From the IMG/VR virus record IMGVR_UViG_2667528065_000005: a DNA stretch of 17,986 nucleotides; one strand, written 5' to 3'. A model generated the notes under the pieces. That model saw nothing but the letters and a program-made list of their open reading frames with translations. It searched no databases and had not been told where the DNA came from. Both the position numbers and the translations under genes were made by a program. This document shows positions 1 through 17,330 of the stretch, piece after piece. The stretch comes from a virus (Duplodnaviria; Heunggongvirae; Uroviricota; Caudoviricetes). Numbering within the stretch: position 1 is the first letter of the stretch; the number at the start of each line of letters is the position of its first letter.

Positions 1-350
1 CCTTAACTGATCGGCATTACAGCCAGATGCTGGGCTTTATTGCCGAAAACTATGATCAGGCGCTGACCATCAACGATGTGGCTGAGCACGTCAAACTTAA
101 CGCCAACTATGCAATGGGGATATTCCAGCGGGTCATGCAATTGACGATGAAACAGTACATTACCGCGATGCGCATCAACCACGTTCGCGCGTTACTGAGC
201 GATACCGATAAAAGTATTCTCGATATTGCCCTGACGGCAGGCTTTCGTTCGAGTAGCCGTTTTTACAGCACGTTCGGCAAATATGTCGGCATGTCGCCGC
301 AACAATACCGCAAACTTAGCCAACAGCGCCGCCAGACGTTTCCCGGCTAA
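1..350 (+). CDS. melR: AraC-family transcriptional activator, C-terminal part (5' end upstream of window); matches melibiose operon regulator MelR
   Basis: Frame open from the window edge to a stop at 348-350. Translation ends ...NYAMGIFQRV...FRSSSRFYSTFGKYVGMSPQQYRKLSQQRRQTFPG, an AraC-type HTH pair. Sits directly upstream of adiA as in E. coli. Confidence 0.7.
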   Translation, partial: LTDRHYSQMLGFIAENYDQALTINDVAEHVKLNANYAMGIFQRVMQLTMKQYITAMRINHVRALLSDTDKSILDIALTAGFRSSSRFYSTFGKYVGMSPQQYRKLSQQRRQTFPG

Positions 351-545: not shown

Positions 546-2288
546 ATGATGAAAGTATTAATTGTTGAAAGCGAGTTTCTCCATCAAGACACCTGGGTCG
601 GTAACGCCGTTGAGCGTCTGGCAGATGCTTTAAGCCAGCAAAATGTTACCGTGATTAAATCCACCTCCTTTGATGATGGTTTTGCCATTCTCTCTTCAAA
701 CGAAGCCATTGACTGCCTGATGTTCAGCTATCAAATGGAACATCCGGACGAACATCAAAACGTCAGACAATTGATCGGTAAGCTTCATGAGCGCCAACAA
801 AACGTGCCGGTCTTCCTGTTGGGCGATCGGGAAAAAGCCCTCGCCGCAATGGACCGGGATCTGCTGGAGCTTGTCGATGAATTCGCCTGGATTCTGGAAG
901 ATACCGCCGACTTTATCGCCGGACGCGCCGTTGCCGCGATGACCCGCTACCGCCAGCAGCTATTGCCGCCACTGTTCAGCGCGCTGATGAAATATAGCGA
1001 CATCCATGAATATTCCTGGGCAGCGCCAGGCCACCAGGGCGGCGTTGGTTTTACCAAAACACCCGCCGGACGTTTCTACCATGACTATTATGGTGAAAAT
1101 CTGTTCCGCACCGACATGGGTATCGAACGCACTTCCCTCGGTTCTTTGCTTGACCATACTGGCGCATTTGGCGAAAGCGAAAGATATGCCGCACGCGTAT
1201 TTGGTGCCGATCGCTCCTGGTCGGTAGTCGTCGGTACTTCCGGCTCTAACCGCACCATCATGCAGGCTTGCATGACCGATAACGATGTAGTGGTCGTTGA
1301 CCGTAACTGCCATAAATCCATCGAACAAGGCTTGATGCTGACAGGCGCGAAACCGGTCTACATGGTGCCAAGCCGCAACCGCTACGGCATTATCGGGCCA
1401 ATCTATCCGCAGGAAATGCAACCTGAAACCTTGCAGAAGAAAATCAATGAAAGCCCGCTGACCAAAGACAAAGCCGGGCAAAAACCGTCTTACTGCGTGG
1501 TGACCAACTGCACCTATGACGGCGTGTGTTATAACGCTAAAGAAGCACAGGATCTGCTGGAAAAAACCTCCGATCGTCTGCACTTTGACGAAGCCTGGTA
1601 CGGCTATGCACGTTTCAACCCGATCTATGCCGATCACTATGCCATGCGCGGCGAACCTGGCGATCACAACGGTCCTACCGTTTTCGCCACCCACTCCACC
1701 CACAAACTGCTGAATGCGCTGTCACAGGCCTCTTATATTCATGTACGTGAAGGTCGTGGGGCGATTAACTTCTCCCGCTTCAACCAGGCCTACATGATGC
1801 ATGCCACCACCTCCCCGCTGTATGCCATCTGCGCATCCAACGACGTGGCGGTGTCGATGATGGACGGCAACAGCGGCCTGTCACTGACCCAGGAAGTGAT
1901 CGACGAAGCGGTTGATTTCCGTCAGGCGATGGCGCGGCTATATAAAGAGTTCACCGCTGACGGTAGCTGGTTCTTCAAACCGTGGAACAAAGAAGTCGTC
2001 ACCGACCCACAAACCGGCAAAACCTATGACTTTGCTGACGCACCAACCAAACTGCTGACCACCGTTCAGGACTGCTGGGTCATGCATCCGGGCGAAAGCT
2101 GGCACGGCTTCAAAGATATTCCGGATAACTGGAGTATGCTCGACCCGATTAAAGTCAGCATCCTTGCTCCGGGAATGGGTGAAGATGGTGAACTGGAAGA
2201 AACCGGTGTTCCGGCGGCGCTGGTCACAGCCTGGCTTGGTCGCCACGGCATTGTGCCTACCCGTACCACTGACTTCCAGATTATGTTC

Positions 2289-2320
2289 CTGTTCTCTATG
2301 GGCGCTGTTCTCTATGGGCG
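2289..2320. repeat. Perfect 16-bp tandem duplication (ctgttctctatgggcg x2) inside adiA; +1 frameshift
   Basis: Read directly: unit at 2289-2304 repeated at 2305-2320. Confidence 0.95.
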
Positions 2321-2367
2321 TGACCCGTGGGAAATGGGGGACTCTGGTTAACACCCTTTGCTCCTTC

Positions 2368-2409
2368 AAACGCCACTATGATGCCAACAAACGCCACTAT
2401 GATGCCAAC
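2368..2409. repeat. Perfect 21-bp tandem duplication (aaacgccactatgatgccaac x2) inside adiA; in-frame, duplicates KRHYDAN
   Basis: Read directly: 2368-2388 repeated at 2389-2409. Confidence 0.95.
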
Positions 2410-2436
2410 ACACCGCTGGCGCAGGTGATGCCGGAA

Positions 2437-2480
2437 CTTGTTGAACAATATCCTGACACTTGTTGAACAATATCCTGACA
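2437..2480. repeat. Perfect 22-bp tandem duplication (cttgttgaacaatatcctgaca x2) inside adiA; frameshift
   Basis: Read directly: 2437-2458 repeated at 2459-2480. Confidence 0.95.
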
Positions 2481-2501
2481 CTTACGCGAACATGGGGATT
2501 C

Positions 2502-2549
2502 ACGATCTGGGTGACACCATGTTTGACGATCTGGGTGACACCATGTTTG
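2502..2549. repeat. Perfect 24-bp tandem duplication (acgatctgggtgacaccatgtttg x2) inside adiA
   Basis: Read directly: 2502-2525 repeated at 2526-2549. Confidence 0.95.
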
Positions 2550-2562
2550 CCTGGCTGAAAGA

Positions 2563-2628
2563 AAACAACCCTGGCGCACGGTTGAATGAAGCCTAAAACA
2601 ACCCTGGCGCACGGTTGAATGAAGCCTA
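2563..2628. repeat. Perfect 33-bp tandem duplication inside adiA; the junction creates a TAA stop in the reading frame in use at that point
   Basis: Read directly: aaacaaccctggcgcacggttgaatgaagccta at 2563-2595 repeated at 2596-2628. The junction gcc|taa gives a stop at 2594-2596. Confidence 0.95.
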
Positions 2629-2637
2629 TTCCGGCCT

Positions 2638-2677
2638 ACCGGTGGCGGAAATCACCTCACCGGTGGCGGAAATCACC
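2638..2677. repeat. Near-tandem duplication, 19-nt core (accggtggcggaaatcacc) with period 21 and a 2-nt difference at the junction, inside adiA
   Basis: Read directly: copies at 2638-2656 and 2659-2677 separated by tc. Translates as VAEIT..VAEIT. Confidence 0.9.
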
Positions 2678-2781
2678 CCGCGTGAAGCGTACAACGCGAT
2701 TGTCGACAACAATGTCGAACTGGTATCCATTGAAAATCTGCCAGGACGTATCGCGGCAAACTCAGTTATCCCGTATCCGCC

Positions 2782-2816
2782 AGGAATCCCGATGCTGTCT
2801 AGGAATCCCGATGCTG
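2782..2816. repeat. Imperfect tandem duplication, 16-nt core (aggaatcccgatgctg) with period 19, inside adiA; net frameshift
   Basis: Read directly: copies at 2782-2797 and 2801-2816 separated by tct. Confidence 0.9.
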
Positions 2817-2988
2817 CTGTCTGGTGAAAACTTCGGCGATAAAAACAGTCCGCAAGTAAGTTATTTACGCTCGCTGCAATCCTGGGACCATCATTTCCCT
2901 GGATTTGAACACGAAACAGAAGGGACAGAAATTATTGACGGTATTTACCACGTTATGTGTGTGAAAGCGTAACCACTATTCCGCTGAA

Positions 2989-3015: not shown

Positions 3016-3089
3016 GCCTGGCTTGAGGCCTTTTAAGTATGGCAACGTTTTCATAAAAATTGCTGCAAACAAAAAATGTCATGCTTTTT

Positions 3090-3117: not shown

Positions 3118-3593
3118 CCTGTTATTTATCCTTTTTTTAGCCTGTAAAAAAATATGTATCATGAGAAATTAGCCTATAAAAATATGTAATATTAGTAAAA
3201 CTCGTTATTTTTATGCATGTTTATATTCATCATACAATTATATAACCATTTCCCGGTATCGCTTCGCTTTAGCGAGAACTGGTCTTTTATTCGCACTCAG
3301 GAGTACATGTATGAGGATTTGCAGCGACCAACCTTGTATTGTTTTATTGACTGAAAAAGATGTCTGGATAAGGGTGAATGGGAAAGAACCTATTAGCCTT
3401 AAAGCTAACCACATGGCGTTATTAAATTGTGAAAATAATATTATCGACGTCTCCTCTCTTAATAACACTTTGGTTGCTCATATTAGTCACGACTATGCAT
3501 GCAAAGATTACCTCACGACATCATCAAAGATAACATCCGGTCTCGCAAATACCAGTATGGCAACGTAGCGCTACGCCCATCCTCACCCTTCCA

Positions 3594-3646
3594 TGCCTGA
3601 CGCCAGACGTCTTTCGCGTCTGCCTGACGCCAGACGTCTTTCGCGT
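3594..3646. repeat. Near-perfect 27-bp tandem duplication in adiY (26/27 identical); in-frame, duplicates CLTPDVFRV
   Basis: Read directly: tgcctgacgccagacgtctttcgcgt at 3594-3619 and 3621-3646. Confidence 0.95.
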
Positions 3647-3799
3647 TGCCGCGCAGCATAGCATGATGCCCGCTGAAACTGAGTCAGAAAAGGAACGAAC
3701 ACGTGCATTATTATTCACTGTGCTATCCCGTTTTCTCGACAGTAAAAAATTCCTTTCACTAATGATGTATATGTTACGTAATTGTGTAAGTGACAGCGT

Positions 3800-3841
3800 T
3801 TATCAAATTATTGAAAGCGATTATCAAATTATTGAAAGCGA
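3800..3841. repeat. Perfect 21-bp tandem duplication in adiY (ttatcaaattattgaaagcga x2); duplicates YQIIESD
   Basis: Read directly: 3800-3820 repeated at 3821-3841. Confidence 0.95.
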
Positions 3842-4267
3842 TATCCACAAAGACTGGAATCTTAGTATGGTAGCCAGTTGTTTATGTCTTAGCCCAAGTC
3901 TGTTAAAGAAAAAGCTGAAAAGCGAAAACACCAGTTATAGCCAAATAATCACCCACCTGCCGCATGCGTTATGCCGTAAATGAATTAATGATGGACGGTA
4001 AAAATATCTCTCAGGTATCACAGTCCTGCGGCTACAACAGTACGTCGTACTTTATTTCTGTCTTTAAAGACTTCTACGGTATGACGCCGCTGCATTATGT
4101 TAGTCAGCACAGAGAACGCACTGTCGCCTGATTTTTAACCTTAACGAAGAGCTATATTAATAACGGCATCAGCGATAACCCGGCCGATAATAATTCAACT
4201 ATCGAATGCAGGCGTATGATATGACGTAATTTATTGTCACGAAGCTCGCCTTCGCAGGAGTTTAATT

Positions 4268-4777
4268 ATGTCTTCGGATGCTGATGCTCACAAAGTGGGC
4301 TTAATCCCCGTCACCCTGATGGTGTCGGGGAATATTATGGGGTCAGGTGTTTTTCTGTTACCTGCAAACCTGGCCTCCACTGGCGGGATTGCTATTTATG
4401 GATGGTTGGTGACGATTATCGGTGCGCTGTCGGTGCGCTGGGGCTCTCGATGGTATACGCCAAAATGTCGTTCCTCGACCCAAGTCCTGGTGGTTCTTAC
4501 GCTTACGCCCGCCGCTGCTTTGGCCCGTTTCTCGGTTATCAAACCAACGTCCTCTACTGGCTGGCCTGCTGGATCGGCAATATCGCCATGGTGGTCATTG
4601 GCGTAGGATATTTAAGTTACTTCTTCCCGATTCTGAAAGATCCATTGGTATTAACCATCACCTGCGTCGTGGTGCTGTGGATCTTCGTCCTGCTGAACAT
4701 TGTCGGTCCGAAAATGATCACCCGCGTACAGGCCGTTGCTACCGTGCTGGCGCTGATCCCCATCGTCGGGATTGCCG
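4268..4777 (+). pseudogene. adiC: Arginine:agmatine antiporter AdiC, 5' portion only; frameshifted by an 11-bp tandem duplication and cut off by the prophage junction
   Basis: [54 protein letters not shown] in frame 2, then ...[47 protein letters not shown]...IPIVGIA in frame 1. Coding sequence diverges into unrelated DNA after about 4777. Confidence 0.85.
4419..4440. repeat. Perfect 11-bp tandem duplication (tcggtgcgctg x2) in adiC; frameshift
   Basis: Read directly: 4419-4429 repeated at 4430-4440. Confidence 0.95.
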
Positions 4778-4782
4778 GAGGG

Positions 4783-4935
<153 letters not shown>

Positions 4936-4944
4936 TTGCAGATA

Positions 4945-5334
4945 TTACTCTTTTTTCTCCGTATCTGCATCGGGTTCATCAGCAAATAGCTTGCCCTGCA
5001 TCCGATCCAGTTCTTCTTTTCTTACCCGCTTAACCACGCTGTAGACCCACTGAAGCGAAACACCAAATTTGCGGGCCAGTTCGTGGTGGTTGCGTCCGTT
5101 AAACTCCCTGAAGATTTCCCGGTCGCGCTGACTGACCTTCCATACCATGCCCATCGGGAAATAAACGTTTTGCCCGCCCCAGACCTGCATCATTCGGTTC
5201 GCGACGGCCTGACCAATCTGGTCGGCAACTTCGGGCTCAATATCAATAATCTCGCGAACGGTCTCAGAGGTATGCTGTGCCAGTTCCACCAGGAGTTCCG
5301 GCCCCTTACTTCGAAACTGATTCAGGTCGCTCAT
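4945..5334 (-). CDS. mor: Mor/C-family phage transcriptional activator
   Basis: 129 aa. C-terminal ...GGQNVYFPMGMVWKVSQRDREIFREFNGRNHHELARKFGVSLQWVYSVVKRVRKEE matches the recalled Mu Mor pattern (GGGQVYIPRG...RD..I...FNGRN..EL...YGV....VYK..RR). Confidence 0.75.
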   Translation of the reverse strand: MSDLNQFRSKGPELLVELAQHTSETVREIIDIEPEVADQIGQAVANRMMQVWGGQNVYFPMGMVWKVSQRDREIFREFNGRNHHELARKFGVSLQWVYSVVKRVRKEELDRMQGKLFADEPDADTEKKE

Positions 5335-5755
5335 GTTTGACTCCCGCAGCTCTGCGCTGCCACTTCTTCAGTTTCTCAATAACACTGCTTGCCTGTTCAG
5401 TACTGAGCCAGCGCAGGGCGCTGATGCCCGTTTCCCGCTTGATCCACCTCGCTAATGCATTTTCTGAACGGTCACGAACAATGCCGGCAGCAGCCATTTC
5501 AAGCCATAGCGCACGAATTTTCCTGGACTGCGGATGGTTATCAAGCGGTAAACCGGAGCTGGCTTTTCTGGCTGGTTTAACGCGAAAGCCTTTCTTTTTC
5601 ATGGATTCCAGCACGCAGTTTAGTTGTGTGGTATCCATTCCTTTGGTTGAGGCTTTACCGGTCAGCCCCTGTAACATCTGGCGGTAGGTGTCTTCATCCA
5701 TACCCAGTTCATTACGGGCAATATGGATAAGCTGTATCAGGCGTTTTTTCTGCAT
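5306..5755 (-). CDS. gemA: GemA-like phage protein (Mu gp16 / DUF1018 family)
   Basis: 149 aa. N-terminal LIQLIHIARNELGMDEDTYRQMLQGLTGKAS...GF pattern typical of GemA-family proteins. Overlaps the mor start by 29 bp. Confidence 0.65.
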   Translation of the reverse strand: MQKKRLIQLIHIARNELGMDEDTYRQMLQGLTGKASTKGMDTTQLNCVLESMKKKGFRVKPARKASSGLPLDNHPQSRKIRALWLEMAAAGIVRDRSENALARWIKRETGISALRWLSTEQASSVIEKLKKWQRRAAGVKHERPESVSK

Positions 5756-5756
5756 A

Positions 5757-5963
5757 TCATCTCCTTTTTTTCAGTCTGTCGGCAACAATGTCGGTTGCAG
5801 CTGGCAGGGTGACTGGCCAGAACAACATGACGGCGGTCATGTACAGGATGTAATGCGCGGTGTCGTAGTGCCTGCCATAGCCCAGGGAACGATGAAGTCT
5901 TGCGCTGCATGATCCTGCGTACATATACCAGAAAAGAAAACAGACAATGGTTTCAGTAGTCAT
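5757..5963 (-). CDS. Small hydrophobic protein (about 68 aa, two predicted TM segments), hypothetical
   Basis: Internal ATG at 5963 preceded by a GGGGAGG Shine-Dalgarno. The longer 120-aa frame would overlap the upstream gene. Confidence 0.4.
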   Translation of the reverse strand: MTTETIVCFLFWYMYAGSCSARLHRSLGYGRHYDTAHYILYMTAVMLFWPVTLPAATDIVADRLKKRR

Positions 5964-6183
5964 TCTGAATACCTCCCCATTCGATATGAATATTACGGGC
6001 AGCAATGACAGGGTCGTTATTCCACCATGCACCTGACATGTATTTTTCAACCTGTTCGCGTCCGGCAATAACACCAATTGTGATCCCCGGCCTGACGTTC
6101 TTAAAAAAGGCGCGGGCAAAAAGGTATCTGGCAGATATTCGGCAGGCTTTTAATTTCCGGCTTTTACCTGATAGCGTAATCAT
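5953..6183 (-). CDS. Hypothetical phage protein (76 aa)
   Basis: ATGA start/stop overlap with the upstream gene at 6180-6183 and a GGAGG upstream; fits tight operon packing. Confidence 0.45.
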   Translation of the reverse strand: MITLSGKSRKLKACRISARYLFARAFFKNVRPGITIGVIAGREQVEKYMSGAWWNNDPVIAARNIHIEWGGIQNDY

Positions 6184-6863
6184 CTGGCCTCCAGTTTCTG
6201 TTGTTCCTGCCCACTGACCGGGCGGTGCAGTCTGACGTTCTGCCCTTCACGAAACCCCGCATAGCGCGAGGCGTCGCCATTGCGGCTTCTTCCCGGTTTA
6301 CGCGCCCTGGTGGTTTGCGTCTGCGGGTATTTATGTTCCAGCCACTGCTGCATCAGTTCACGCTCATCATCGGTCAGGGCAAAGGACTGTATTTCACTGA
6401 TAACGGCCAGCACCCAGCCTTCGGCAAACTGGTCTCCACGGCTGGTGCGGGTGGCGGTTTTTATTCTTTTGTTCTGTGCACTGATATACTGCTGACGCGC
6501 CTTTTTCAGCTGACGGGCCAGCACTTCCCAGGTGTATGCAGCCAGTGCCGCACGTTCCCGGTTGCCGTAGAACCCCACAGACGGATGCGTGCCGGGGTGA
6601 ATGATGGAGTTAACACCAAATACCTCGCGGATGATGTTCATCAGGCCCAGCATGTAGCGCGGTGGACGGAGACTGCCTGTCGGCCAGTAGTGACTGATGG
6701 TTTCATCAATATCACTCATAGCAATGTCGGAATGTGTGATGCCGTGAACATCCATCAGTTTACGGGCTCGGCGCAGTGCCAGAGCGGCCTCGTGCGGGTT
6801 GCCGGATGCGGCCAGCGCCAGCAACTTTTTCAGTTTCTCAATGTGTTTATTCTGGTCTGTCAT
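6180..6863 (-). CDS. Hypothetical phage protein with DUF2786-like N-terminus
   Basis: Translation from the internal Met (MTDQNKHIEKLKKLLALAASGNPHEAALALRRARKLMDVHGI...) resembles the DUF2786 N-terminal pattern. ATGA overlap with the upstream gene at 6860-6863; an alternative start at 6899 is possible. Confidence 0.5.
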   Translation of the reverse strand: MTDQNKHIEKLKKLLALAASGNPHEAALALRRARKLMDVHGITHSDIAMSDIDETISHYWPTGSLRPPRYMLGLMNIIREVFGVNSIIHPGTHPSVGFYGNRERAALAAYTWEVLARQLKKARQQYISAQNKRIKTATRTSRGDQFAEGWVLAVISEIQSFALTDDERELMQQWLEHKYPQTQTTRARKPGRSRNGDASRYAGFREGQNVRLHRPVSGQEQQKLEAR

Positions 6864-7075
6864 TGTTCTGTATCTCCGGTATTTTTCTGCCGTTTCCATG
6901 CCCGGACAGCGTCGGACAGCTCTTTCAGGCTGTATGCTGCTTTAAGCTTTTCCCATAACCACTGTGTTGTTATGTGCATCAGCAGGGCAGCCAGGGCTGC
7001 CCCCGCACTGAGGCATGTCGCCAGGCCAGTAAGAATCAGTGTCCATGCGGTGATTTCCCTGAGTATGTCAGCCAT
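6860..7075 (-). CDS. Small membrane protein (71 aa), hypothetical
   Basis: Hydrophobic stretch WTLILTGLATCLSAGAALAALLM; packed in the operon. Confidence 0.45.
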   Translation of the reverse strand: MADILREITAWTLILTGLATCLSAGAALAALLMHITTQWLWEKLKAAYSLKELSDAVRAWKRQKNTGDTEQ

Positions 7076-7089
7076 TGAATGCCTCCCGG

Positions 7090-7386
7090 TTACTCGTTCG
7101 TGTAAATCACGCCCAGTCGTGCAGCCAGACGTTCCAGTTTTTTCTGTTTGTGGAAGTCAATCAGCCGGTCCATCCCCTGAAGGCGCAGTTGCTCTGTCAT
7201 GATTTCCACGTCTGCCAGCTCTGCCGCGAGGTCACTTTCGCTGCCCTGTCCGTTCAGGTTGCGGGCGGCACTGGCCGCCAGTTCAGCGGCCTCTTCTGCC
7301 AGTTTCAGGGCCTGTGCGTCCGGCCCGAAACGCTGCAGGGCCAGACGGTAGAGGGCGGTGCGGGTGAGTTCGGTGTTTCGTGTCAT
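7090..7386 (-). CDS. MazG-like nucleotide pyrophosphohydrolase domain protein (small all-alpha NTP-PPase)
   Basis: 98 aa with LKLAEEAAELAAS ... ELADVEIMTEQL, resembling the EExxE...E/D metal-binding motifs of MazG-like NTP pyrophosphohydrolases. Confidence 0.5.
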   Translation of the reverse strand: MTRNTELTRTALYRLALQRFGPDAQALKLAEEAAELAASAARNLNGQGSESDLAAELADVEIMTEQLRLQGMDRLIDFHKQKKLERLAARLGVIYTNE

Positions 7387-7395
7387 GCCGCGCCC

Positions 7396-7668
7396 TCAGT
7401 GCTTCCGGCTGACGGTGATGTGCAGGCCGCCTTCTGCAGTGGTTTCCATCCGGTACGGCACCTCATGCTCTGCCGTGTGGGTGAGTGTGTTCATCAGTAC
7501 CTGCAGGGCAGCCTCCTTTCCGTTGGTCGCCACAATGGCCTGTGTGGCCATGCTGATTAGCGCCGTCAGGACGTGCTTCACATCGGTGAGGTCGCGGCAT
7601 TCACACTCGTTGACATAGTGTTCAACAAGAGTTCGGGTGCGCTGTCGTGCTTCCTGTGGGGTAATCAT
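7396..7668 (-). CDS. Hypothetical phage protein (90 aa)
   Basis: ORF in operon register; 4-bp overlap with the upstream gene. Confidence 0.45.
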   Translation of the reverse strand: MITPQEARQRTRTLVEHYVNECECRDLTDVKHVLTALISMATQAIVATNGKEAALQVLMNTLTHTAEHEVPYRMETTAEGGLHITVSRKH

Positions 7669-7859
7669 TGCGCGTCCTCCCTGTCAGGGCGGGAGAATTC
7701 CATGACGGGCACGTCCGCCGAAAAATGCTGGCTGCAGTACGGGCAGACCAGGGTGACACGTACTGCAGGTATGTGATACTTACCGGACATCACGGCGATG
7801 GCGCTGTGAAAACGCAGGGCTGTTATATCCCTCTCGCACTGAATACATTTAAATATCAT
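7665..7859 (-). CDS. Small zinc-ribbon-like protein (CxxC...CxxC), hypothetical
   Basis: 64 aa with KCIQCE ... VCPYCS cysteine pairs. Confidence 0.45.
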   Translation of the reverse strand: MIFKCIQCERDITALRFHSAIAVMSGKYHIPAVRVTLVCPYCSQHFSADVPVMEFSRPDREDAQ

Positions 7860-7956
7860 AATTTAATTCTCCTCTGTTTCCGGCGTGCAGAAGCCCGCGG
7901 CGCTGACGCCGGAATAAAAAAGAAAATGTTTTTATTAAATAATTAACGTGGTGTGT

Positions 7957-8487
7957 TTACTGCACATCCTGCTCAAAAGGAATTATTGAAAAATCCTCAA
8001 TATCACTTTTTATGGTAATACCGGGAATATTTTTCACAGCCTCTTTTTCATTCAGAATGGCATCTTTATTTATTTCCTCCTTTACACGAATAAAGCGCTC
8101 AAGCCCCAGACGTCTCAGCAGTTCAATGACATTATCCGCCCCGCGAATGCTGACTGACGGCGGACGGTTTCGCCACTGCACCTCGCCGGTGGTGAGGTTA
8201 GCGAACTTCACCTTCCCGTTGCCGGTCAGTTCATCACGGTGCGCCTCACACCATGTCTGGATACCGGACTGCAGTTCGGCCATGCGTTTTTTCAGGCTCT
8301 CGGTGAGCGGGGCATAACGTGCAGTGATGTCGCCAATGGTGTCATTCATTTCTGTTTCAGCCCTGACCAGTTCACGTTGCGCGTCACCAAGCAGTCTGAT
8401 TCCCTCAATGACCTCTTCGCGTGTCCCCGGCACCCAGAGTGCTGCTGCGGCTTTGATACGTTTTGCCCCTTTTGTACTTTTTGCCAT
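7957..8487 (-). CDS. gam: Host-nuclease inhibitor Gam (Mu Gam-like DNA-end-binding protein)
   Basis: 176 aa. MAKSTKGAKRIKAAAALWVPGTREEV...TEMNDTIGDIT...WCEAHRDELTGNGKVKFANLTTGEVQWRNRPPSVSIRGADNVIELLRRLGLERFIRVKEEINK...GITIKSDIEDFSIIPFEQ aligns along its length with the recalled Mu Gam. Confidence 0.85.
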   Translation of the reverse strand: MAKSTKGAKRIKAAAALWVPGTREEVIEGIRLLGDAQRELVRAETEMNDTIGDITARYAPLTESLKKRMAELQSGIQTWCEAHRDELTGNGKVKFANLTTGEVQWRNRPPSVSIRGADNVIELLRRLGLERFIRVKEEINKDAILNEKEAVKNIPGITIKSDIEDFSIIPFEQDVQ

Positions 8488-8514
8488 ATTTTATGACTCC
8501 TCCTGTTGTGCTGA

Positions 8515-8784
8515 TTACCACAAAGATTCCGGCCACACGACGCGACAGCCGTGCAGTTCGAAAACGCCCTGACGGAAATGTCCCCTGTGGTCATGACCGG
8601 TATACAGATAACAGGCCTTTCCCTGCTCAAGCATGCGCATGCAATGCGCACTCCGGGAAACGCGGATGACAGGTTTGTTACCCCTGATGGTGATGCTTTG
8701 TACATCCGTGTTCGTCGCCTTAAGCGCCATAATGGCTGACTGCACTTTGCTGATTTGCTGGTTGATACCTGTGGTGGATTTCAT
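8515..8784 (-). CDS. Hypothetical phage protein (89 aa) between the MuB-like gene and gam
   Basis: ORF in operon register, 2 bp after the B-like stop. Confidence 0.45.
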   Translation of the reverse strand: MKSTTGINQQISKVQSAIMALKATNTDVQSITIRGNKPVIRVSRSAHCMRMLEQGKACYLYTGHDHRGHFRQGVFELHGCRVVWPESLW

Positions 8785-8786
8785 TA

Positions 8787-9953
8787 TTAAACCCCTTTGA
8801 CAACGTCAGCGTTGACCTGTGGAACCCCGATTTCAGCGGCCAGATTCATGGCGGCTATTACCAGGTTACTGACGGCCAGCGGATACAGCAGGCTGACCAT
8901 ATTTTTACGATGACTTCCCGGATTGCTCAGGCGGGCACGTATGGCATCCACTGCGCTGGCGTCCATAATGTCCGTCAGTTGTTTACCGGCCCGTTGCAGT
9001 TTGAACGTCAGAAACTCTTCAAGGTTATTGTCCAGAGGCAGAAGTTCGACCACCTCACAGCGCTGAACGACTTCACGGACTTCCATATTGCGTTCAGACA
9101 GTTTTGTCGCCAGTTCCGGCTGGCCAATCAGCACGATGGACAGCAGTTTTTTGAAACCGGACTCCAGCTCAAAAAAGCGTTTGAGGTGTTTCAGTGTCGG
9201 AATGGGCAGACTGTGGGCCTCCTCAATCACCAGAACGTGGCTGAACCCCGCCTGGCTGCTGTCTTTCAGGACGCGATGCAACTGGCGAAAGCGGGCGTCC
9301 TGACTGCGTCTGATGCTTTCCAGTGGTGCGATGGTACTGATAATGGCTTCGGCAATCGCTGCTGCCTTCAGGGTTTTCCCTTTCACATCGTTGTCTTCCA
9401 TAGCGATGATGTATGGCTCGATAACAATTACCGGCGCATTCTCGCGGTTGATACGTTCAGTCAGGTCGCGGCGCAGCGTGGATTTACCCGCACCGGACTC
9501 ACCGATGACGGCCATAAACCCACCATGACGGGCTGTCTGGTACAACGCCTCACGCACGTAGCGAATATCCGGGGTGGTGAACACATCATCAGAACCCTGC
9601 ATGGCTTCGTCGGCGAACGGGTCACGGAAAAGACCAAACGCTTTTTTGGTTGCTGGAAATAACACCTGTTTTTTGAGTAACATATTCTCTTCCTCACTGA
9701 GGCTCGTTTTATCTGTGGTACCCGCTGTACGGGGCGTGGCCGCGCCCTGTACAGCATCAAAACTCTTCGTTGTATCAATCCCCTGACTTTCCAGCCAGGA
9801 CGCAAGACGCCGGCGCACTTCTCCGGGGCTGGTGCGGGGCCACGCGTTATGATTCACAATCTGGGCCAGCGTGGCCTCAGAAACATCGACAGCTCTCGCC
9901 ACCACCGCCTGTGGAATACGGGCCTCTTTCAGTTGCTGCTTCAGTACCAGCAT
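8787..9953 (-). CDS. MuB-like AAA+ ATPase (transposition target/activator protein)
   Basis: Walker A GESGAGKST and Walker B HVLVIEEAH; N-terminal HTH-like region. Likely start is the ATG at 9953 with GGAGGG upstream (the longest frame extends to 9992). Immediately downstream of the transposase gene. Confidence 0.8.
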   Translation of the reverse strand: MLVLKQQLKEARIPQAVVARAVDVSEATLAQIVNHNAWPRTSPGEVRRRLASWLESQGIDTTKSFDAVQGAATPRTAGTTDKTSLSEEENMLLKKQVLFPATKKAFGLFRDPFADEAMQGSDDVFTTPDIRYVREALYQTARHGGFMAVIGESGAGKSTLRRDLTERINRENAPVIVIEPYIIAMEDNDVKGKTLKAAAIAEAIISTIAPLESIRRSQDARFRQLHRVLKDSSQAGFSHVLVIEEAHSLPIPTLKHLKRFFELESGFKKLLSIVLIGQPELATKLSERNMEVREVVQRCEVVELLPLDNNLEEFLTFKLQRAGKQLTDIMDASAVDAIRARLSNPGSHRKNMVSLLYPLAVSNLVIAAMNLAAEIGVPQVNADVVKGV

Positions 9954-9963
9954 GTTTCCCTCC

Positions 9964-11733
9964 TCAGTTGCCGTTAACAATGCTGATAACACTGCTGCGG
10001 GCCGGTGTGGTCAGCGTGGCCATGACTTCATCCAGTGCGGCTTCCGGTACGCCGTCCGGGTACTGTGCCGTTAACTGGCGGTAATGTTCCGGCGTCCAGG
10101 TAAGGCCGTCGGCGCTGAACTTATCGCGCAGGGCTTTCGCGGCCTCCACATGAGTCATGGGACGTTGTTCAGTGCGCGGCCCGCGTACGTCAGAGGCCTG
10201 ACCACGCTTCGGCATATAGGCCGGAAGTGTGGTGTCGTCGATATGTTTATACGGGTCAAGCCGCCCGCCGAACGGCAGCGCCTTCGCCTTGCGTGCGGCG
10301 GCTGCATCTGCGGCGTTGTCTGTACCGGTAACCAGCGCTTCGGTTTCTTTTGCCGCCATCTGTGCCGGGGTTTCCGGCAGGGCTTTGTAACTTTCGCCAA
10401 ATACCGCCGCGCCTTCAGCAAAGCCAAACTCGTTCTTTCTGACCTCTTCGACCAGGAAGAACGTCTCGTGGCCGTCCTCACCGGTCAGAACCACCTGTGC
10501 CACATCGCTGCGCCATGGGTTACGGGTAATCATCAGTTTTTCACCAACCAGTACGCCCGGTACCGTTGATACGTCAAATTCAGTGCCCCGGAACGAGACA
10601 CGAAGTTTTGGCGTGACTTTGCGGAGTTCTGGTGCCGCCACAGCCAGTTCACGACATACCTCAACGGAAGGCGCTTTTTTCAGCTGCTCAGCAGTAATCT
10701 TCAGCCAGATATCCGTGCGGGTTTTACCGTGGCGGCTGTGAACAGCCGTGGCGTTAAAGTGGCTGCGCCATTTCGCGGCCAGCGCGTTGAGTTCTTCCAG
10801 ACTGTGAACCGGCCGGAACTTCAGACCCGGCTCCAGCTTGCGTTCGATAATGTCACGCGCCTTTTCCACCTGTCCGGTGGCGCGGGCGTTATGCGGCTTG
10901 TGCGCTATCAGGTCAATGCCCAGTGAGCGGCACATGTTTTTCGTCATACCCGCGGTGTTTGCCGAACCGGGGTCGAGATAGAGTATTTTTGGCACGCCGT
11001 GCAGCACGTCTGCGCCGCCACGCTCCTGCATGGCGTTGATAAGCACAGAACACAGGTTCTCACCGGATTCCGCACCCGTCACATACTCAACGTAAATCCA
11101 GCCGCTGGCATGGTCGGTAATCTCGTAACTCCACACGCGGTCACTGGCGATACGGGCAAGGTTAGCGGGTTTGTTCTTGTAGAACTTCGCGCTGTCCATC
11201 ACCTGCAGCCCTTTGTGTCCATTGCTCAGGTAGTAAAGCGTGCAGAGCGAGGCATCAATCTGCCAGACATGATTGGGATGCAGACTGGCCACTTCGGTAT
11301 GCGGCGCAGGAGCATCCAGTTGTTCCGGGTGCAGGCCATAGTTACGCAGGGCACGACTGATGGCATCTTCGGACAACGGGAAAAACTCACCGGTGGTTTC
11401 ATCTGTTCTGCCTGCGGAGATAAAGCCGTTAGCCCGCAGGGTTTCCACTGCATCCGCGATGGAATAGAGACGCTTACCGTTCTTGCGGGTGGCCTCACGC
11501 AGTGTGGCAGATATCAGCGCGGCTTCGTCGCGGGTCAGGGCGCTGCGTCCGGCATCAGCGCGTTTTTTGCGTTTATCAGTCACAGAGACCTCCTTCAGCC
11601 TGCGCAGCAGAGTGGCGCGGGACATGCCAAGTTCAGCACAGGCAGCGTCGTATATTGCACCGCGTTTACCATGCCCCGCGTCACGTGCCGCGCGGGCGAC
11701 ATAAACCAGTCGTTCAGTCAGGGCAGCATTCAT
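9964..11733 (-). CDS. DDE transposase (Mu A-like / rve-fold)
   Basis: 589 aa. N-terminal HTH-like region, then candidate catalytic residues in HVWQIDAS, LYLDPGSANT and NARATGQVEK. GGAGG upstream of the start. Confidence 0.8.
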   Translation of the reverse strand: MNAALTERLVYVARAARDAGHGKRGAIYDAACAELGMSRATLLRRLKEVSVTDKRKKRADAGRSALTRDEAALISATLREATRKNGKRLYSIADAVETLRANGFISAGRTDETTGEFFPLSEDAISRALRNYGLHPEQLDAPAPHTEVASLHPNHVWQIDASLCTLYYLSNGHKGLQVMDSAKFYKNKPANLARIASDRVWSYEITDHASGWIYVEYVTGAESGENLCSVLINAMQERGGADVLHGVPKILYLDPGSANTAGMTKNMCRSLGIDLIAHKPHNARATGQVEKARDIIERKLEPGLKFRPVHSLEELNALAAKWRSHFNATAVHSRHGKTRTDIWLKITAEQLKKAPSVEVCRELAVAAPELRKVTPKLRVSFRGTEFDVSTVPGVLVGEKLMITRNPWRSDVAQVVLTGEDGHETFFLVEEVRKNEFGFAEGAAVFGESYKALPETPAQMAAKETEALVTGTDNAADAAAARKAKALPFGGRLDPYKHIDDTTLPAYMPKRGQASDVRGPRTEQRPMTHVEAAKALRDKFSADGLTWTPEHYRQLTAQYPDGVPEAALDEVMATLTTPARSSVISIVNGN

Positions 11734-11736
11734 TGG

Positions 11737-12648
11737 TTATGCCTCCAGCCCGTTAATCTGTGGCGTCGGCTCAGTCAGCCATGAAGGCGCGGCATTGCCT
11801 GTTGGCTCATCCGGCAGGTCAAATGTGGAGCGCAGGCTACGCGCTGTGCTTTCCAGTTGACAGACCAGGCCTGCCATGAAGTCTCTGGGGGTATCAATCA
11901 TGTTTTCAGCACAATATGCGCACAGCGTCTCAAAAGCGCTGGACAGTCGAACGGCGATAGCAGATTCCGCCTCAACCGCTAATGCTGTCACTTCCGCCCG
12001 CAGCTTCTTAACCTCTTCATCAGGCTCAGGCGGCTGAATACGGGATTTCTTCTCCAGTCTGGTGGAGAGTGAGTCTATTTTTTCATTTTTGTCAGCGAGT
12101 ACGCGCTGTTGTGCTGCGTTGGTTTCGCGCGCTTCGCGCAGGGCCTGACGCAATTCACGTACTGACATGCGATCAACGTCGTCAAGCGTCAGGCCGGCAA
12201 CTGTGCCGCCGTCGGCCAGTTCGGCAAGCTCTTCGTCGTCTTCTGTCATTAATTCGAAAAGTTTGGCTTTTCCCAAATGTGCCAACGTTGGCACATTTGG
12301 TTTCAGCGCCGGGGATAAGTATTTTGTCGATGCTTGCATCATTCTCACAGATGTCCGGTATGCCAGCCCCAACTCACTTTCAAGAATCTTTATAAACTCC
12401 CCGTGTGGTTCATTTTCCTTAAGGATTATCAGCCGCTTACCTGCCTCCAGCATGGCCTCAGCGCTCTGTGCCATATAAAAGCGTGCCTCATGGACAACAC
12501 GATCGCGCTCATAGGGCAGACCATCGCCGAACTGTTGCATGATTTCCATGCGATGCTGTGTCATGGCGTTTAGACTGACATTGAGATCATCCGACAGCGG
12601 TACCTCGACGTTCAGTTCAGTGCTAACCGGTGATTTGGTGCGTCCCAT
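11737..12648 (-). CDS. Hypothetical phage protein (303 aa) with a coiled-coil-like acidic central region
   Basis: Long ORF with AAGGAG upstream of the start; lies between the Ner-like genes and the transposase. Confidence 0.55.
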   Translation of the reverse strand: MGRTKSPVSTELNVEVPLSDDLNVSLNAMTQHRMEIMQQFGDGLPYERDRVVHEARFYMAQSAEAMLEAGKRLIILKENEPHGEFIKILESELGLAYRTSVRMMQASTKYLSPALKPNVPTLAHLGKAKLFELMTEDDEELAELADGGTVAGLTLDDVDRMSVRELRQALREARETNAAQQRVLADKNEKIDSLSTRLEKKSRIQPPEPDEEVKKLRAEVTALAVEAESAIAVRLSSAFETLCAYCAENMIDTPRDFMAGLVCQLESTARSLRSTFDLPDEPTGNAAPSWLTEPTPQINGLEA

Positions 12649-12658
12649 TGATTACTCC

Positions 12659-12967
12659 TTACAAACGACTACCTGAAATAACACGTTGGTTGATTTCGTT
12701 AATGCGATCCTGTGCACGTGCCATCTCGTTACTGTGGGCCATGGCGATCTGCAGCAACTGGATGCCTGGTGCGAAACGCCCGTTTTCTAGTTTCAGAGCC
12801 AACCCTTCTTCAATGAGCGTGTTAAGTGCCCGGTTGATGTTTGCCGGTGATTCGTGCAGTGCAACCGCTAGTTCCCCGTTAGAAACACCGTTCAAAGCGT
12901 GGCCACGTAAGGCCTTAAGAACGCGCAAAATACGGGTACCTGAGCTTGATGTATTTGGTTTATTCAT
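12659..12967 (-). CDS. Winged-helix/HTH DNA-binding protein (102 aa)
   Basis: GTRILRVLKALRGHALNGVSNGELAVALHESPANINRALNTLIEEGLA resembles an HTH of the IclR/MarR type. 4-bp overlap with the upstream gene. Confidence 0.5.
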   Translation of the reverse strand: MNKPNTSSSGTRILRVLKALRGHALNGVSNGELAVALHESPANINRALNTLIEEGLALKLENGRFAPGIQLLQIAMAHSNEMARAQDRINEINQRVISGSRL

Positions 12968-13188
12968 GACGCCTCCTTAAGGATACCGGGGGTAACTTCT
13001 TTACCTATTGCAACCGATAGATCTCGCAAAATCCGATAAGTCAAACGACCGCGAGGTAGTTCACTTTTACCAGCCCAGCGACTGACTGCCTGGGTGACTG
13101 TTCGTGGTTCATAGCCCGCGTTAAGCGCGAACTGGCGCAAGCTACTGCCTCGTTCAACCAGCCGTGCCCGAACTTGTTGTTTGTTCAT
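12964..13188 (-). CDS. ner: Ner-like DNA-binding protein (Ner/Nlp family)
   Basis: VRARLVERGSSLRQFALNAGYEPRTVTQAVSRWAGKSE matches the recalled Mu Ner pattern (ADVIAGLKKRKLSLSALSRQFGYAPTTLANALERHWPKGE). Divergent from the repressor gene. Confidence 0.65.
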   Translation of the reverse strand: MNKQQVRARLVERGSSLRQFALNAGYEPRTVTQAVSRWAGKSELPRGRLTYRILRDLSVAIGKEVTPGILKEAS

Positions 13189-13276
13189 ATGCACCGTGTT
13201 CCTGTTAGGTTATGATGTACTCTATTGGGTCTATTGTACACACCCAAATGAGTGTGTCAAATTGAGATATGTTCAA
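13189..13276. promoter_or_regulatory. Divergent ner / repressor control region with candidate operators
   Basis: 88-bp gap between divergent genes. Contains inverted repeat ACACAC-N8-GTGTGT (13238-13257) and direct repeat tctattg x2 (13221-13236). Confidence 0.4.
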
Positions 13277-13684
13277 ATGAGTACAAAAGAGAGATTGCGT
13301 GAAGTGATGGATGCTAATGGCATGACAATAAAGGCATTATCTAACTTATCAAAAATTCCATATCGCTCACTTCAAAACTATTTGCGTGGAGAGAGAGAAC
13401 CAAACGCAGAGGCTCTTGTTGCGCTAAGCACCCATTTGGGTGTATCGATCGATTGGCTACTTACCGGTAAAGAACATATTCCATCTAAAGAAATTGTTGC
13501 TGTACCAACACAACATCAATTCAGCCCGTCAGACCTTAAAATGCTTGAACTTCTAAACCAGTTAGATCCTGAGGTTCGGCGAGATCTCATGCGAGGCGCT
13601 GAAGAAAAACAGCGTGTGATTGAGATGGAAAAACAACTGAAGGAATTATCCGCAACGATTGAGCGGTTAAAAAATGTGGGTTAA
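13277..13684 (+). CDS. XRE-family (Cro/CI-type HTH) phage repressor with C-terminal coiled-coil
   Basis: MSTKERLREVMDANGMTIKALSNLSKIPYRSLQNYLRGEREPNAEALVALSTHLGVSIDWLLTG is a typical XRE HTH. Divergent from the early operon. The ORF track's longer frame starts at 13181, but that would overlap ner. Confidence 0.65.
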   Translation: MSTKERLREVMDANGMTIKALSNLSKIPYRSLQNYLRGEREPNAEALVALSTHLGVSIDWLLTGKEHIPSKEIVAVPTQHQFSPSDLKMLELLNQLDPEVRRDLMRGAEEKQRVIEMEKQLKELSATIERLKNVG

Positions 13685-13754
13685 TGTGTTCCTAACGAGA
13701 ACATATAGCAGAAATTATTTGCCATTAAGCAATAAAAAATAAGGTGGATAGCTA

Positions 13755-14762
13755 ATGTCTGAGCAGACCATTGAAGTTAAACACGTTGTAGTTCACATTT
13801 TAGACAAACAACAAAATGGAGACGCTTCTGAGAGATTGAGTCCTGAAGAAGGTCTAGTTACTGAAGCCTCCCAGCGCCTTATAAACGATATTTGTGCAAA
13901 ATATGCAGGACGCACAGGTAAAGGTTATGGCTATTTTGAAGGCGATACGGATAACTATCCTATGGAACGAATGGCTGGGGACTTTCTCGAAGGTGTTGAT
14001 GATTTCTACCAAAGTTCCTGCCGAATGATGCATCACCTGACGGAACGTTCTCAGCGAGAAAACATGGCTACTGGTGGTTATGTTCTTTTTGCAAATATCG
14101 TGATAGGACACAATGAACACCTGTTGATAGCTATTGTAAGCGCTACCATTGGATCCACTGTCACAGATGATTTTAACATCCAAGATAGTACCTATCTTGA
14201 TATTGCTAAGCTGCGTATGGCTGGGCGCATTGACTTAACCGCGTGGGAAAGTGGCGCAGAGCGCTATATCAGTTTTCTTAAGGGGCAAGGTAATGTTTCA
14301 AACTATTTTAAACAGTTCCTCGGCTGTAATGATGTCTTAATCGCCAAACGAGAGTCTGAAAAGTTACGTGACGTTTTAAAAGCATTTGCGGCAGAGAAAG
14401 GACTTGACGGCGCTGAAAAAGATGCATTTCTTAAGAGTGCGTTTGAACACTTACATGCACTAAGTAAGGCTGGTGAACCACTTAGTCTTGAAACCCTTGT
14501 TAATGCCATTTGGCCCCAGGCTCCCGAGGAGTTATCTGGTAAACTTGCTGCTGAAGAGTTGGAGTTATCGGATGGCTTCGTTCCTGATGGTCGAGTCATT
14601 CGGGCTCTGGTATCTTTTAAAGGCAAGTCTAAATATTGGGAACTTAAGTTTGACCGGGAAGGGAAAACTGAAGGCTATATTGATTATGATCCGGAAACAA
14701 ATATTATCACCCTACGTAATGTACCTGAAGAATTTAGGGAAATGTGGATGACTGAGGTTTAA
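13755..14762 (+). CDS. Divergent YejK/NdpA-family nucleoid-associated protein homolog (335 aa), prophage cargo
   Basis: Shared blocks with recalled E. coli YejK along the whole length: GGYVLFANIVIGHNEHLLIAIV, YLDIAKLRMAGRIDLTAWE, YISFLKGQ, YFKQFLGCNDVLIAKRE...AEKGLDGAEKDAF, ITLRNVPEEFRE. AAGGTGG Shine-Dalgarno before the ATG. Confidence 0.65.
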   Translation: MSEQTIEVKHVVVHILDKQQNGDASERLSPEEGLVTEASQRLINDICAKYAGRTGKGYGYFEGDTDNYPMERMAGDFLEGVDDFYQSSCRMMHHLTERSQRENMATGGYVLFANIVIGHNEHLLIAIVSATIGSTVTDDFNIQDSTYLDIAKLRMAGRIDLTAWESGAERYISFLKGQGNVSNYFKQFLGCNDVLIAKRESEKLRDVLKAFAAEKGLDGAEKDAFLKSAFEHLHALSKAGEPLSLETLVNAIWPQAPEELSGKLAAEELELSDGFVPDGRVIRALVSFKGKSKYWELKFDREGKTEGYIDYDPETNIITLRNVPEEFREMWMTEV

Positions 14763-14764
14763 TC

Positions 14765-15970
14765 GTGGCGATTTCATTTGAGATGCTGACAGATCTGTAT
14801 CGTCGTATGGAATTCCAAGAGGGGTTTCGTGTCGGTTCGCTGTTGCTCTTAGATCAGTCCGATTGTGATCTGGTTGATACTTTGCTTGATGATCCTCGTG
14901 AATATGGTCTTTCTATTGATACAGGCACTATCGCTCCAGGTAACACGATCATCCTACGTGTGACGTCACCACGGAGTGGACTGGGACTTGTGTTTTCCAC
15001 CCATGAAAAATTGCTAAATGCTCCAAAGCATCAGTGCCTTGAGCCAGCTAATTACTTCATCCTAGAAACAAAGTTTCGTAATGATGATGAAGATATCCCC
15101 GTTTTCATCAGCAACTACCGGAAGATTCTCGAGTTCGTTAACCTGCTAAAAGAGGCCGCGGCCTACTTTGATAACTCAACTTGTCAGTTAGTTTTTCTGA
15201 AAAAAGAAGTTATCAAGCTATTACCGCACTTCGCTGCAGAAAATGTACAAAATTTGCAAAGAGAGTATCTTGATAACCTTATAGCTTGTTTCAATGATGA
15301 TACCCATAAGGATCAGAAGCTAGATATTCTGATTGAAAGTATCCAAGCAGTTAGTGATGGAATTGATTCACCTCTAGTATTCGCTTATTTACTGGACAAT
15401 ATTCAGCGTCTGCATGAAAAGTTTCTGAAAGGGTATCGTATCTACTCTTCTGGATTCTCTTATGACAAAGTAATGGATCAACTGCGTGCTGCAAAAGTCG
15501 AAGAAATGGGTAAAATCCACAAAGCGTTTTCAGATATCCAGAACCATATACTTGGCATTCCTGTTGCCTCTGTTATCGTAGCTACCCAATTCAAAGTGGC
15601 TACGAAATGGTCAGGCCAAGGGATAACAAACACAATAATTCTTCTGGGATGCATTTTTGCTGCAACGTTAATCTGGCTGGCACTTTCGAACCAGATGCAA
15701 TCTATAAAGGCCTTAGGCGAAGAAATTGAATACAAAGAAAAACAGATTAATAAGGAATATTCCTTCATTAAAGATGACGTGGCTGGTGTATTTAGCAGTA
15801 TTTCTGCGCGACTAGACACGCAGAAACGTACGTTCTGGATTATACGTGGTGTTCTAGTTATGGGAATTATTACCGCTATCACTGTTTATTTTTGGTACAC
15901 AAAACCAGCCCTTGACTTCATGCAGTACTTGATTCACTGCATGAAGTCTTACTATTCGGTCAAAAGTTGA
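14765..15970 (+). CDS. Hypothetical 401-aa protein: soluble N-terminal region plus two or three C-terminal transmembrane helices; coupled to the YejK-like gene
   Basis: GTG start 2 bp after the upstream stop with GAGGT upstream (an alternative ATG lies at 14783). Hydrophobic helices TNTIILLGCIFAATLIWLAL and FWIIRGVLVMGIITAITVYFWY. No family recognised. Confidence 0.6.
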   Translation: MAISFEMLTDLYRRMEFQEGFRVGSLLLLDQSDCDLVDTLLDDPREYGLSIDTGTIAPGNTIILRVTSPRSGLGLVFSTHEKLLNAPKHQCLEPANYFILETKFRNDDEDIPVFISNYRKILEFVNLLKEAAAYFDNSTCQLVFLKKEVIKLLPHFAAENVQNLQREYLDNLIACFNDDTHKDQKLDILIESIQAVSDGIDSPLVFAYLLDNIQRLHEKFLKGYRIYSSGFSYDKVMDQLRAAKVEEMGKIHKAFSDIQNHILGIPVASVIVATQFKVATKWSGQGITNTIILLGCIFAATLIWLALSNQMQSIKALGEEIEYKEKQINKEYSFIKDDVAGVFSSISARLDTQKRTFWIIRGVLVMGIITAITVYFWYTKPALDFMQYLIHCMKSYYSVKS

Positions 15971-16730
15971 GGATAATGAGTTCCTTCTTGCGACTGGATT
16001 TGCCAGTGATCTTGAGGTTGTAGCTGATATCAACCGACTGAATATTTAGACCGTTGAATGCCTGCCGCATTTCCGGGATATCGTTCACCGATATAATCAT
16101 CTTCCCTTTGATCCTGCGTGCTAAATCTGCCATATGATCATAATTTTCTAGTCCGAACTCCACACCATAACCTTCCGTTCCCCAGTATGGAGGGTCACAG
16201 TAGAACAACGTATGCGGGCGATCATATCGTTCTATGCACTGTTGCCAGTCCATGTGTTCTATGACCGTTCTGGAAAGCCGCAGGTGTGCCGCTGACAGTT
16301 CTTCTTCAATACGCAGCAGGTTGAAGCGTGGCGGGGATATGGTGGAGGTACCAAAGCTGTGCTCCGCCACCTTGCCTCCAAACGCCTGCTTCTGAAGGTA
16401 GTAGAACCGTGCTGCACGCTGGATATCCGTCAGTGTTTCTTCCGGGGTGATCTGCAGCCATTTGTAGATCTGCCGGCTGACCAGCGCCCATTTGAACTGG
16501 CGTACAAATTCTTCCAGATGATGTTTTACCACCCGATACAGGTTCACCAGTTCACCGTTGATATCATTAATGACTTCGATCTTGCCGGGTACCTTAAGAA
16601 AATAGAGCGCTGCTGCCCCACAAAACGGCTCCACATAACATTCATGCGCCGGAAACAGCGGCAGGATGTGTTTTGCAAGGCGGCGTTTGCCACCAATCCA
16701 TGGAACGATGGGTAATGTCTGCATTTTCAT
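15960..16730 (-). CDS. Dam-type N6-adenine DNA methyltransferase (D12 class)
   Basis: 256 aa with FCGAAALYF (AdoMet-binding region) and the catalytic DPPY motif. Convergent with, and overlapping by 11 bp, the 3' end of the 401-aa gene. Confidence 0.8.
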   Translation of the reverse strand: MKMQTLPIVPWIGGKRRLAKHILPLFPAHECYVEPFCGAAALYFLKVPGKIEVINDINGELVNLYRVVKHHLEEFVRQFKWALVSRQIYKWLQITPEETLTDIQRAARFYYLQKQAFGGKVAEHSFGTSTISPPRFNLLRIEEELSAAHLRLSRTVIEHMDWQQCIERYDRPHTLFYCDPPYWGTEGYGVEFGLENYDHMADLARRIKGKMIISVNDIPEMRQAFNGLNIQSVDISYNLKITGKSSRKKELIILNF

Positions 16731-16772
16731 AATCTGTAAGCCTTTTACAATTATAAAAAATATGGCAGGCTA

Positions 16773-16794
16773 GTCTGGTCTCGCGAGACTGACT
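16773..16794. promoter_or_regulatory. About 22-bp imperfect palindrome with a perfect 12-bp core GTCTCGCGAGAC; candidate operator or activator site
   Basis: Read directly: agtctg-GTCTCGCGAGAC-tgact, core at 16778-16789. Lies about 48 bp upstream of the dam start and about 190 bp upstream of the first lysis gene. Confidence 0.35.
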
Positions 16795-16835
16795 GAACCT
16801 CGGTCGGCTCACAGCGCATTCCTGTGGGGCGATGG

Positions 16836-16873
16836 CCAGCCCGGTGTTCGGGTACCGGGCTGGTCGTTCTTTC
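16836..16873 (+). terminator. GC-rich hairpin (ccagcccgg / ccgggctgg, 10-nt loop) followed by a T-rich tract; terminator- or attenuator-like
   Basis: Read directly; function uncertain because no plus-strand gene ends just upstream. Confidence 0.3.
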
Positions 16874-16977
16874 AAAGTCATCATGCAGTGCACGTTTACA
16901 TCTTCACTATTAACGCTGTTTAAAATCCGTATCCCGCCACATTTGTGATGCTGTCTCCACCAAACGAGGAGACACAC

Positions 16978-17328: not shown

Positions 17329-17330
17329 CC

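Follow-up and report, generated by a model that had tools for sequence, protein, structure and literature searches.

Clustered short tandem duplications in adiA, adiY and adiC beside a Mu-like prophage in a draft Escherichia coli contig are very probably assembly errors

The arginine decarboxylase gene adiA, as deposited in one draft contig of Escherichia coli, carries seven short tandem duplications in its 3′ part, and lesions of the same type run on through adiY and adiC as far as a Mu-like prophage inserted in adiC. We conclude that these duplications are very probably errors of sequence reconstruction, in which overlapping pieces of a thinly covered stretch were joined end to end with their overlaps left unmerged. 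The lesions are private to the one draft contig, a sister contig is clean at those positions and faulty elsewhere, and both contigs carry consensus faults at the host–phage junction. The duplications are almost certainly no real biological feature, and adiA and adiY of the strain are most probably intact. Only two lesions at the locus are real, the IS4 insertion in melR and, in adiC, a common Mu-like prophage – both ordinary biology.

The stretch of DNA analysed here (the window, 17,986 bp) is the complete contig AOQI01000070.1 of the draft assembly GCA_000397365.1, a 2013 E. coli draft. The contig starts at an IS4 repeat boundary in melR and stops inside the prophage, and a small contig bounded by a repeat is typical draft output; a draft contig beginning within an IS4 end also marks the source as an unfinished automated assembly. 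A 54-nt string consisting of the first 19 nt and the adjoining melR sequence is complete only in NZ_CM137006.1, where it adjoins an annotated IS4 transposase gene. The 19-nt prefix had also been considered as a phage right end, which is rejected given its identity as an IS4 end. NZ_CM137006.1 is the complete genome of strain 7CC, which has the identical IS4–melR junction, yet its adi region differs from that of the present lineage at 47 positions; because of this, the IS4 insertion in melR is either old or recurrent at the same site. The features of the window are collected in Table 1.

Table 1. Features of the 17,986-bp window, in order of position. Perfect denotes a duplication with two identical copies.
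Feature	Position	Strand	Remarks
Terminal 19 nt of the IS4 copy inserted in melR	1..19	+	Contig begins at repeat boundary
melR, 3′ part	20..350	+	Clean; from D8 annotation and alignment
adiA, arginine decarboxylase	549..2972	+	From D8 annotation and alignment; broken by seven insertions from 2289 on
16-nt tandem duplication	2289..2320		Perfect; no microhomology
21-nt tandem duplication	2367..2410		Perfect; boundary ambiguity 2 nt
22-nt tandem duplication	2436..2483		Perfect; boundary ambiguity 4 nt
24-nt tandem duplication	2502..2549		Perfect; no microhomology
33-nt tandem duplication	2562..2628		Perfect; TAA arises at joint, 2594-2596
21-nt duplication	2638..2679		Left copy ends ..CACCTC, reference ..CACCCC; mismatch at penultimate base
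19-nt duplication	2782..2819		Final 3 nt of left copy TCT, reference CTG
adiA–adiY spacer changes	3159..3184		Extra T at 3159, extra GC at 3172-3173, A/T substitution at 3184
adiY	3311..4131	+	Coordinates carried over from D8 annotation; broken in deposited sequence
Scrambled patch	3494..3540		Error-laden repeat of about 23 nt, 16-nt loss, substitutions
27-nt duplication	3594..3647		Final base of left copy C for T
21-nt tandem duplication	3800..3842		Perfect
Extra C in adiY	3952
adiC, 5′ 0.5 kb as far as the prophage insertion point	4268..4781	+
11-nt tandem duplication in adiC	4419..4440
GAGGG in place of TATTT at the junction	4778..4782		Four T-to-G differences in five bases
Mu-like transposable prophage, left 13.2 kb	4782..17986	-	Clean sequence

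Duplications were located with Tandem Repeats Finder and a repeat search, and insertions were defined by a global alignment of positions 1-4900 of the window against the melR–adiA–adiY–adiC region of E. coli D8. Between 2289 and 2816 both approaches find the seven tandem insertions that a preliminary description of this DNA had reported, with the same positions and the same units of 16, 21, 22, 24, 33, 21 and 19 nt, 156 nt in total. All seven are pure insertions relative to D8, with no mismatch in any of the blocks that separate them. The preliminary description had held that their excision restores a continuous AdiA frame and had proposed alignment to a reference adiA as a check; against D8 only pure insertions appear in adiA, and once these are removed both the gene and its product are 100% identical to D8 adiA and AdiA. 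De-duplication thus restores the reference exactly and without nearby divergence, as expected of an artefact. The TAA attributed to the 33-nt duplication is likewise present, in the local native frame, the joint reading GCC/TAA at 2594-2596 (the slash marks the joint). Upstream, the absence of duplications from melR and the 5′ 1.7 kb of adiA extends to an absence of any difference from D8 across positions 20-2288, a stretch of 2,269 nt comprising the 3′ part of melR and the first 1.74 kb of adiA.

By our own calculation, about 0.006 perfect tandem repeats with a unit of at least 11 nt are expected by chance in 18 kb. Other loci totalling 456 kb contain no perfect tandem repeat of unit length 10-60 nt, compared with seven in 2.2 kb of the window, so that a density beyond ordinary mutation, as had been asserted, is upheld. 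This control set comprised the references together with ten further insertions of the phage, taken with 6 kb of flank, and ten adi loci from elsewhere. Searches with the Mor protein of the phage and with the C-terminal ORF of MelR supplied the insertion sites and adi loci, all of them unrelated. Of the 5,411 complete E. coli genomes having a match, not one has the extra 156 nt, and among the best-matching records listed the 701-nt query aligns to 545 nt, none exceeding 95% identity. The joint of the 33-nt duplication has no match in IMG/VR or JGI metagenome contigs. Recurrence of the allele in relatives or independent assemblies, which would mark a genuine duplication, was therefore not seen in these searches. 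Truncated AdiA proteins of the same 90% cluster were considered as further cases and rejected, as they are contig-end partials or have frameshifts without the repeat signature.

The preliminary description had placed the cluster at the 3′ end of adiA; the positions are correct, but the same type of lesion runs on to 4782. In the global alignment all differences from D8 fall within 2289-4782, and nearly all are insertions. Beyond adiA there are three more duplications, of 27, 21 and 11 nt, together with small insertions, a substitution and the scrambled patch, which includes three 1-nt insertions. The damaged stretch crosses adiY and adiC and stops at the left end of the prophage. In the spacer between adiA and adiY, positions 3145-3198 hold two imperfect 24-nt direct repeats. 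The private changes there (the extra GC and a T-to-A change) raise the likeness of the second repeat to the first, and the spacer changes resemble what would arise had reads been misplaced by the length of one repeat.

The anatomy of the joints is informative as to how they were made. Examples, by sequence, are GAAGCCTAAAACAACC; GGGCGCTGTTCTC; GAAGCCT/AAAACAACC; and TATGGGCG/CTGTTCTC. At the boundaries of the perfect repeats the microhomology amounts to 0, 2, 4, 0, 1, 1 and 0 nt, and the mean boundary ambiguity of about 1.1 nt compares with about 0.7 nt expected by chance (the expectation being our own calculation). Microhomology is thus at about the chance level, unlike that of slippage between direct repeats, for which an excess over chance would be the mark. 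All five substituted bases in repeated units lie within the final 1-3 nt of the left copy (the repeats at 2638, 2782 and 3594), which is expected where the 3′ ends of reads are kept at a joint. Where the joints are densest, the pieces separating them measure 83, 70, 68, 69, 64 and 142 nt. The density of lesions peaks 2-2.5 kb away from the phage end and not beside it. Three aberrant ORFs result – a 601-aa AdiA, a 106-aa piece of AdiY and a 128-aa piece of AdiC – each of them on one contig, with NCBI as the sole source.

A search of IMG/VR for the canonical host–phage junction returned one contig, IMGVR_UViG_2695420576_000002, and this sister contig shares with the window both the IS4–melR breakpoint and the insertion of the phage in adiC. 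Its host part has 4,325 nt identical to D8 and none of the lesions of the window; adiA and adiY are therefore intact there, AdiY matching at 100% over 253 aa, and the spacer positions changed in the window are identical to D8. It has private lesions of its own within about 270 nt of the junction, and its IS4 end has one extra C. One of these lesions is a perfect repeat of 21 nt; the other is a stutter in which the sequence jumps back by 24 and by 13 nt and which includes one piece just 21 nt long. The host octamer TTCCGTGG, proper to uninterrupted adiC at that offset, is present in the sister contig some 14-22 nt into the phage end. The octamer implies that the sister sample held both occupied-site and empty-site reads, presumably through a mixed culture or sample carry-over, and it suggests that the sister consensus blends the two; one real molecule would not be expected to look so. 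A neighbouring contig of the sister assembly was sought in IMG/VR and not found, and a search with AdiY recovered this one sister contig only.

At the junction itself, a four-way alignment of the window, the sister contig, the empty site and the phage end shows that the window has GAGGG where TATTT is expected. A clean junction ORF (P0026) of the same protein cluster runs through AdiC residues 1-168 and then ends in D and a stop (..GIAVFD*); it is encoded by the junction of host ..GCCGTATT with phage TGATTAGAC... It is recorded on seven other contigs (NCBI, Logan and ENA). Because the sister contig and P0026 both show the canonical junction, we read GAGGG as a miscall, with base-call errors apparently retained in the consensus, and not as an unusual insertion; a non-canonical, end-joined phage junction is rejected on the same evidence. 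Consensus failure in the same stretch is thus seen three times over, in GAGGG, in the blended sister consensus and in the extra C of the sister IS4 end. Among other assemblies, apparently of the same lineage, the sister contig lacks the lesions of the window in adiA and adiY, and the seven contigs with P0026 have a clean AdiC-junction ORF. The preliminary description had offered two options. The evidence favours an assembly or construction artefact. It does not support the alternative, an allele that is heavily pseudogenised or hypermutated, given the intact adiA and adiY of the sister contig, the four T-to-G differences at the junction and the confinement of the aberrant ORFs to one contig.

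We propose that, between 2289 and the prophage junction, read support was thin or conflicting, with well-supported stretches on both sides. Successive pieces, which would be single reads or tiny unitigs (64-142 nt in the densest part), would overlap by 11-33 nt. If such pieces were abutted without merging, each unrecognised overlap would be doubled and appear as a tandem duplication, and the unreliable terminal bases of each piece would stay at the joint. The consensus code of Celera/MaSuRCA can 'force abut' unitigs that lack a found overlap, which makes it one candidate for the step. A literature search on the contig accession and on forced abutment by assemblers yielded nothing usable. As to why the damage abuts the phage end, we conjecture that reads were shared with an empty-site allele or carried over between samples, as suggested by the blended consensus of the sister contig. 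We infer the low coverage, this cause of the damage abutting the phage end and the software step alike. Two points tell against an assembly error: both contigs are damaged on the host side up to the phage junction, which is explained solely by the conjecture, and both the 21-nt piece of the sister contig and the patch at 3494-3540 are atypical of simple Illumina read errors.

In many respects the window resembles false duplications at contig or unitig joins in drafts. The extra copy is exactly the sequence common to the neighbouring pieces; its length varies (11-33 nt) and lies under typical k-mer or minimum-overlap sizes; end-of-read errors occur at the joints; the contig is small and repeat-bounded; and the lesions differ between two assemblies of the same lineage. 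Usual false joins, however, come as one per closed gap, whereas here there are at least ten in 2.5 kb, a number that calls for a succession of very small pieces. The published work found on false duplications (PMC9516828) covers, at least in outline, vertebrate genome assemblies and not the short-range type seen here.

The same atypical features, the sister stutter (with its back-jumps of 24 and 13 nt and its 21-nt piece) and the scrambled patch, look more like template switching by a polymerase than like simple abutment of overlaps. They would be accounted for if laboratory chimeras or stutters, from amplification or library preparation, had been faithfully assembled from very few molecules. 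We give this only a slim chance, as ten independent events must each win the consensus within 2.5 kb and the sequence is without any pointer to amplification. Because it requires near-single-molecule coverage, it merges with the explanation by misassembly.

It is also quite improbable that the duplications are real and reflect local error-prone template-switching synthesis on host DNA beside the prophage left end. Transposase nicks could, for example, have served as primers for such synthesis, or transcription reading out of the early operon could have driven it; stretches of 11-33 nt would have been duplicated again and again in genes already useless through the interruption of adiC. A real process would fit with the confinement of the lesions of two related contigs to the host side, where they stop at the phage end, and with their being different in each, as from an ongoing process; errors at duplication joints are found in template switching too, and the phage early operon is directed toward the affected end. 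The maximum of lesion density, however, lies 2-2.5 kb from the phage end and does not adjoin it, ten other insertions of the phage have clean flanks, and seven other contigs have the clean junction ORF. Nor does a real process agree with the cluster of T-to-G miscalls in the window, with a blended sister consensus that is not one real molecule, or with the lack of any accompanying substitution elsewhere in 4.3 kb. An undescribed localised mutation, in which polymerase back-jumps running outward from the left end of the Mu-like element would scar up to 2.5 kb of flank, and do so differently in each sister isolate, we regard as highly improbable. No activity of the Mu family is known that would extend DNA synthesis from the element into its flanks.

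It is barely credible that the arginine-dependent acid resistance locus underwent ordinary pseudogene decay once the prophage had disabled adiC. The locus is already non-functional through the phage in adiC and further lesions would be neutral, but decay is expected to give substitutions and deletions spread over time, and there are no substitutions in the flanking 2.3 kb or in the blocks between duplications; instead more than ten events occur in 2.5 kb, almost all insertions and none common to the sister contig.

Short tandem duplications are known to arise from slippage or from mis-processing of flaps, as in E. coli polA 5′-exonuclease mutants and yeast rad27, and these events share with the window tandem units of tens of bases. 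They differ in having short direct repeats at their flanks and a genome-wide scatter, compared with the chance-level microhomology and the single 2.5-kb stretch observed here. Transposon target-site duplications and excision footprints likewise present direct repeats with 0 or 1-3 nt between them, but the units here range over 11-33 nt, compared with a fixed 6 bp (GTCACC) for the resident phage, and none is common to the sister contig; the target duplication of IS4 is 11-13 bp. Transposon footprints and slippage between direct repeats were accordingly rejected, on the size of the target duplication and on boundary microhomology respectively.

If taken at face value, the deposited contig leads to adiA, adiY and adiC fragments being wrongly called as pseudogenes, and the aberrant ORFs derived from it are already in protein collections as singletons. 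The signature of misassembly described here – many perfect tandem repeats of 11-33 nt, with errors at the ends of left copies, in a small contig whose sequence is otherwise identical to a reference – may flag similar faults in old drafts.

The left 13.2 kb of the prophage, next to the damaged stretch, is clean in sequence. From 4783 to the end of the window it matches NZ_LR883012.1 and two other genomes without interruption at 100% identity, and Escherichia phage PhiKM at 99.7%. Its genes include those for Mor, GemA, Gam, a MuB-like ATPase, a DDE transposase and a repressor, a block coding for an NA37-type protein, a 401-aa protein and a Dam-type methyltransferase, a holin and the start of the lysis genes; the Pfam families rve, AAA_22, Phage_Mu_Gam, GemA and Mor are represented. 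The gene order is presumably BcepMu-like. The early-operon genes, for the transposase, MuB-like ATPase, Gam, GemA and Mor, read toward the adiC-proximal end. The ends of the element in NZ_LR883012.1 are TGATTAG...GCGCATCA, with GTCACC (6 bp) flanking both sides. The gene set, the TG...CA ends, the short target duplication and the many unrelated insertion sites identify the element as Mu-like. Among 81 contigs read, the ten places listed for the same phage are ten different host sites, and 27,640 blocks of the collection have an index entry for its Mor protein.

Two further features of the prophage are worth recording. Between the repressor and the lysis genes (13755-16730) lie genes for an NA37-type nucleoid-associated protein, the 401-aa protein and, on the opposite strand, the Dam-type methyltransferase; for the 401-aa protein there is no Pfam match, and KwaA of the Kiwa system is a weak hit (E = 8e-5). 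The three genes may form an accessory or defence block. At 12273-12300, within the phage DUF3102 gene, there is a perfect 28-nt palindrome, CCAAATGTGCCAAC/GTTGGCACATTTGG (the slash marks its centre), and the sister contig ends in the middle of this palindrome.
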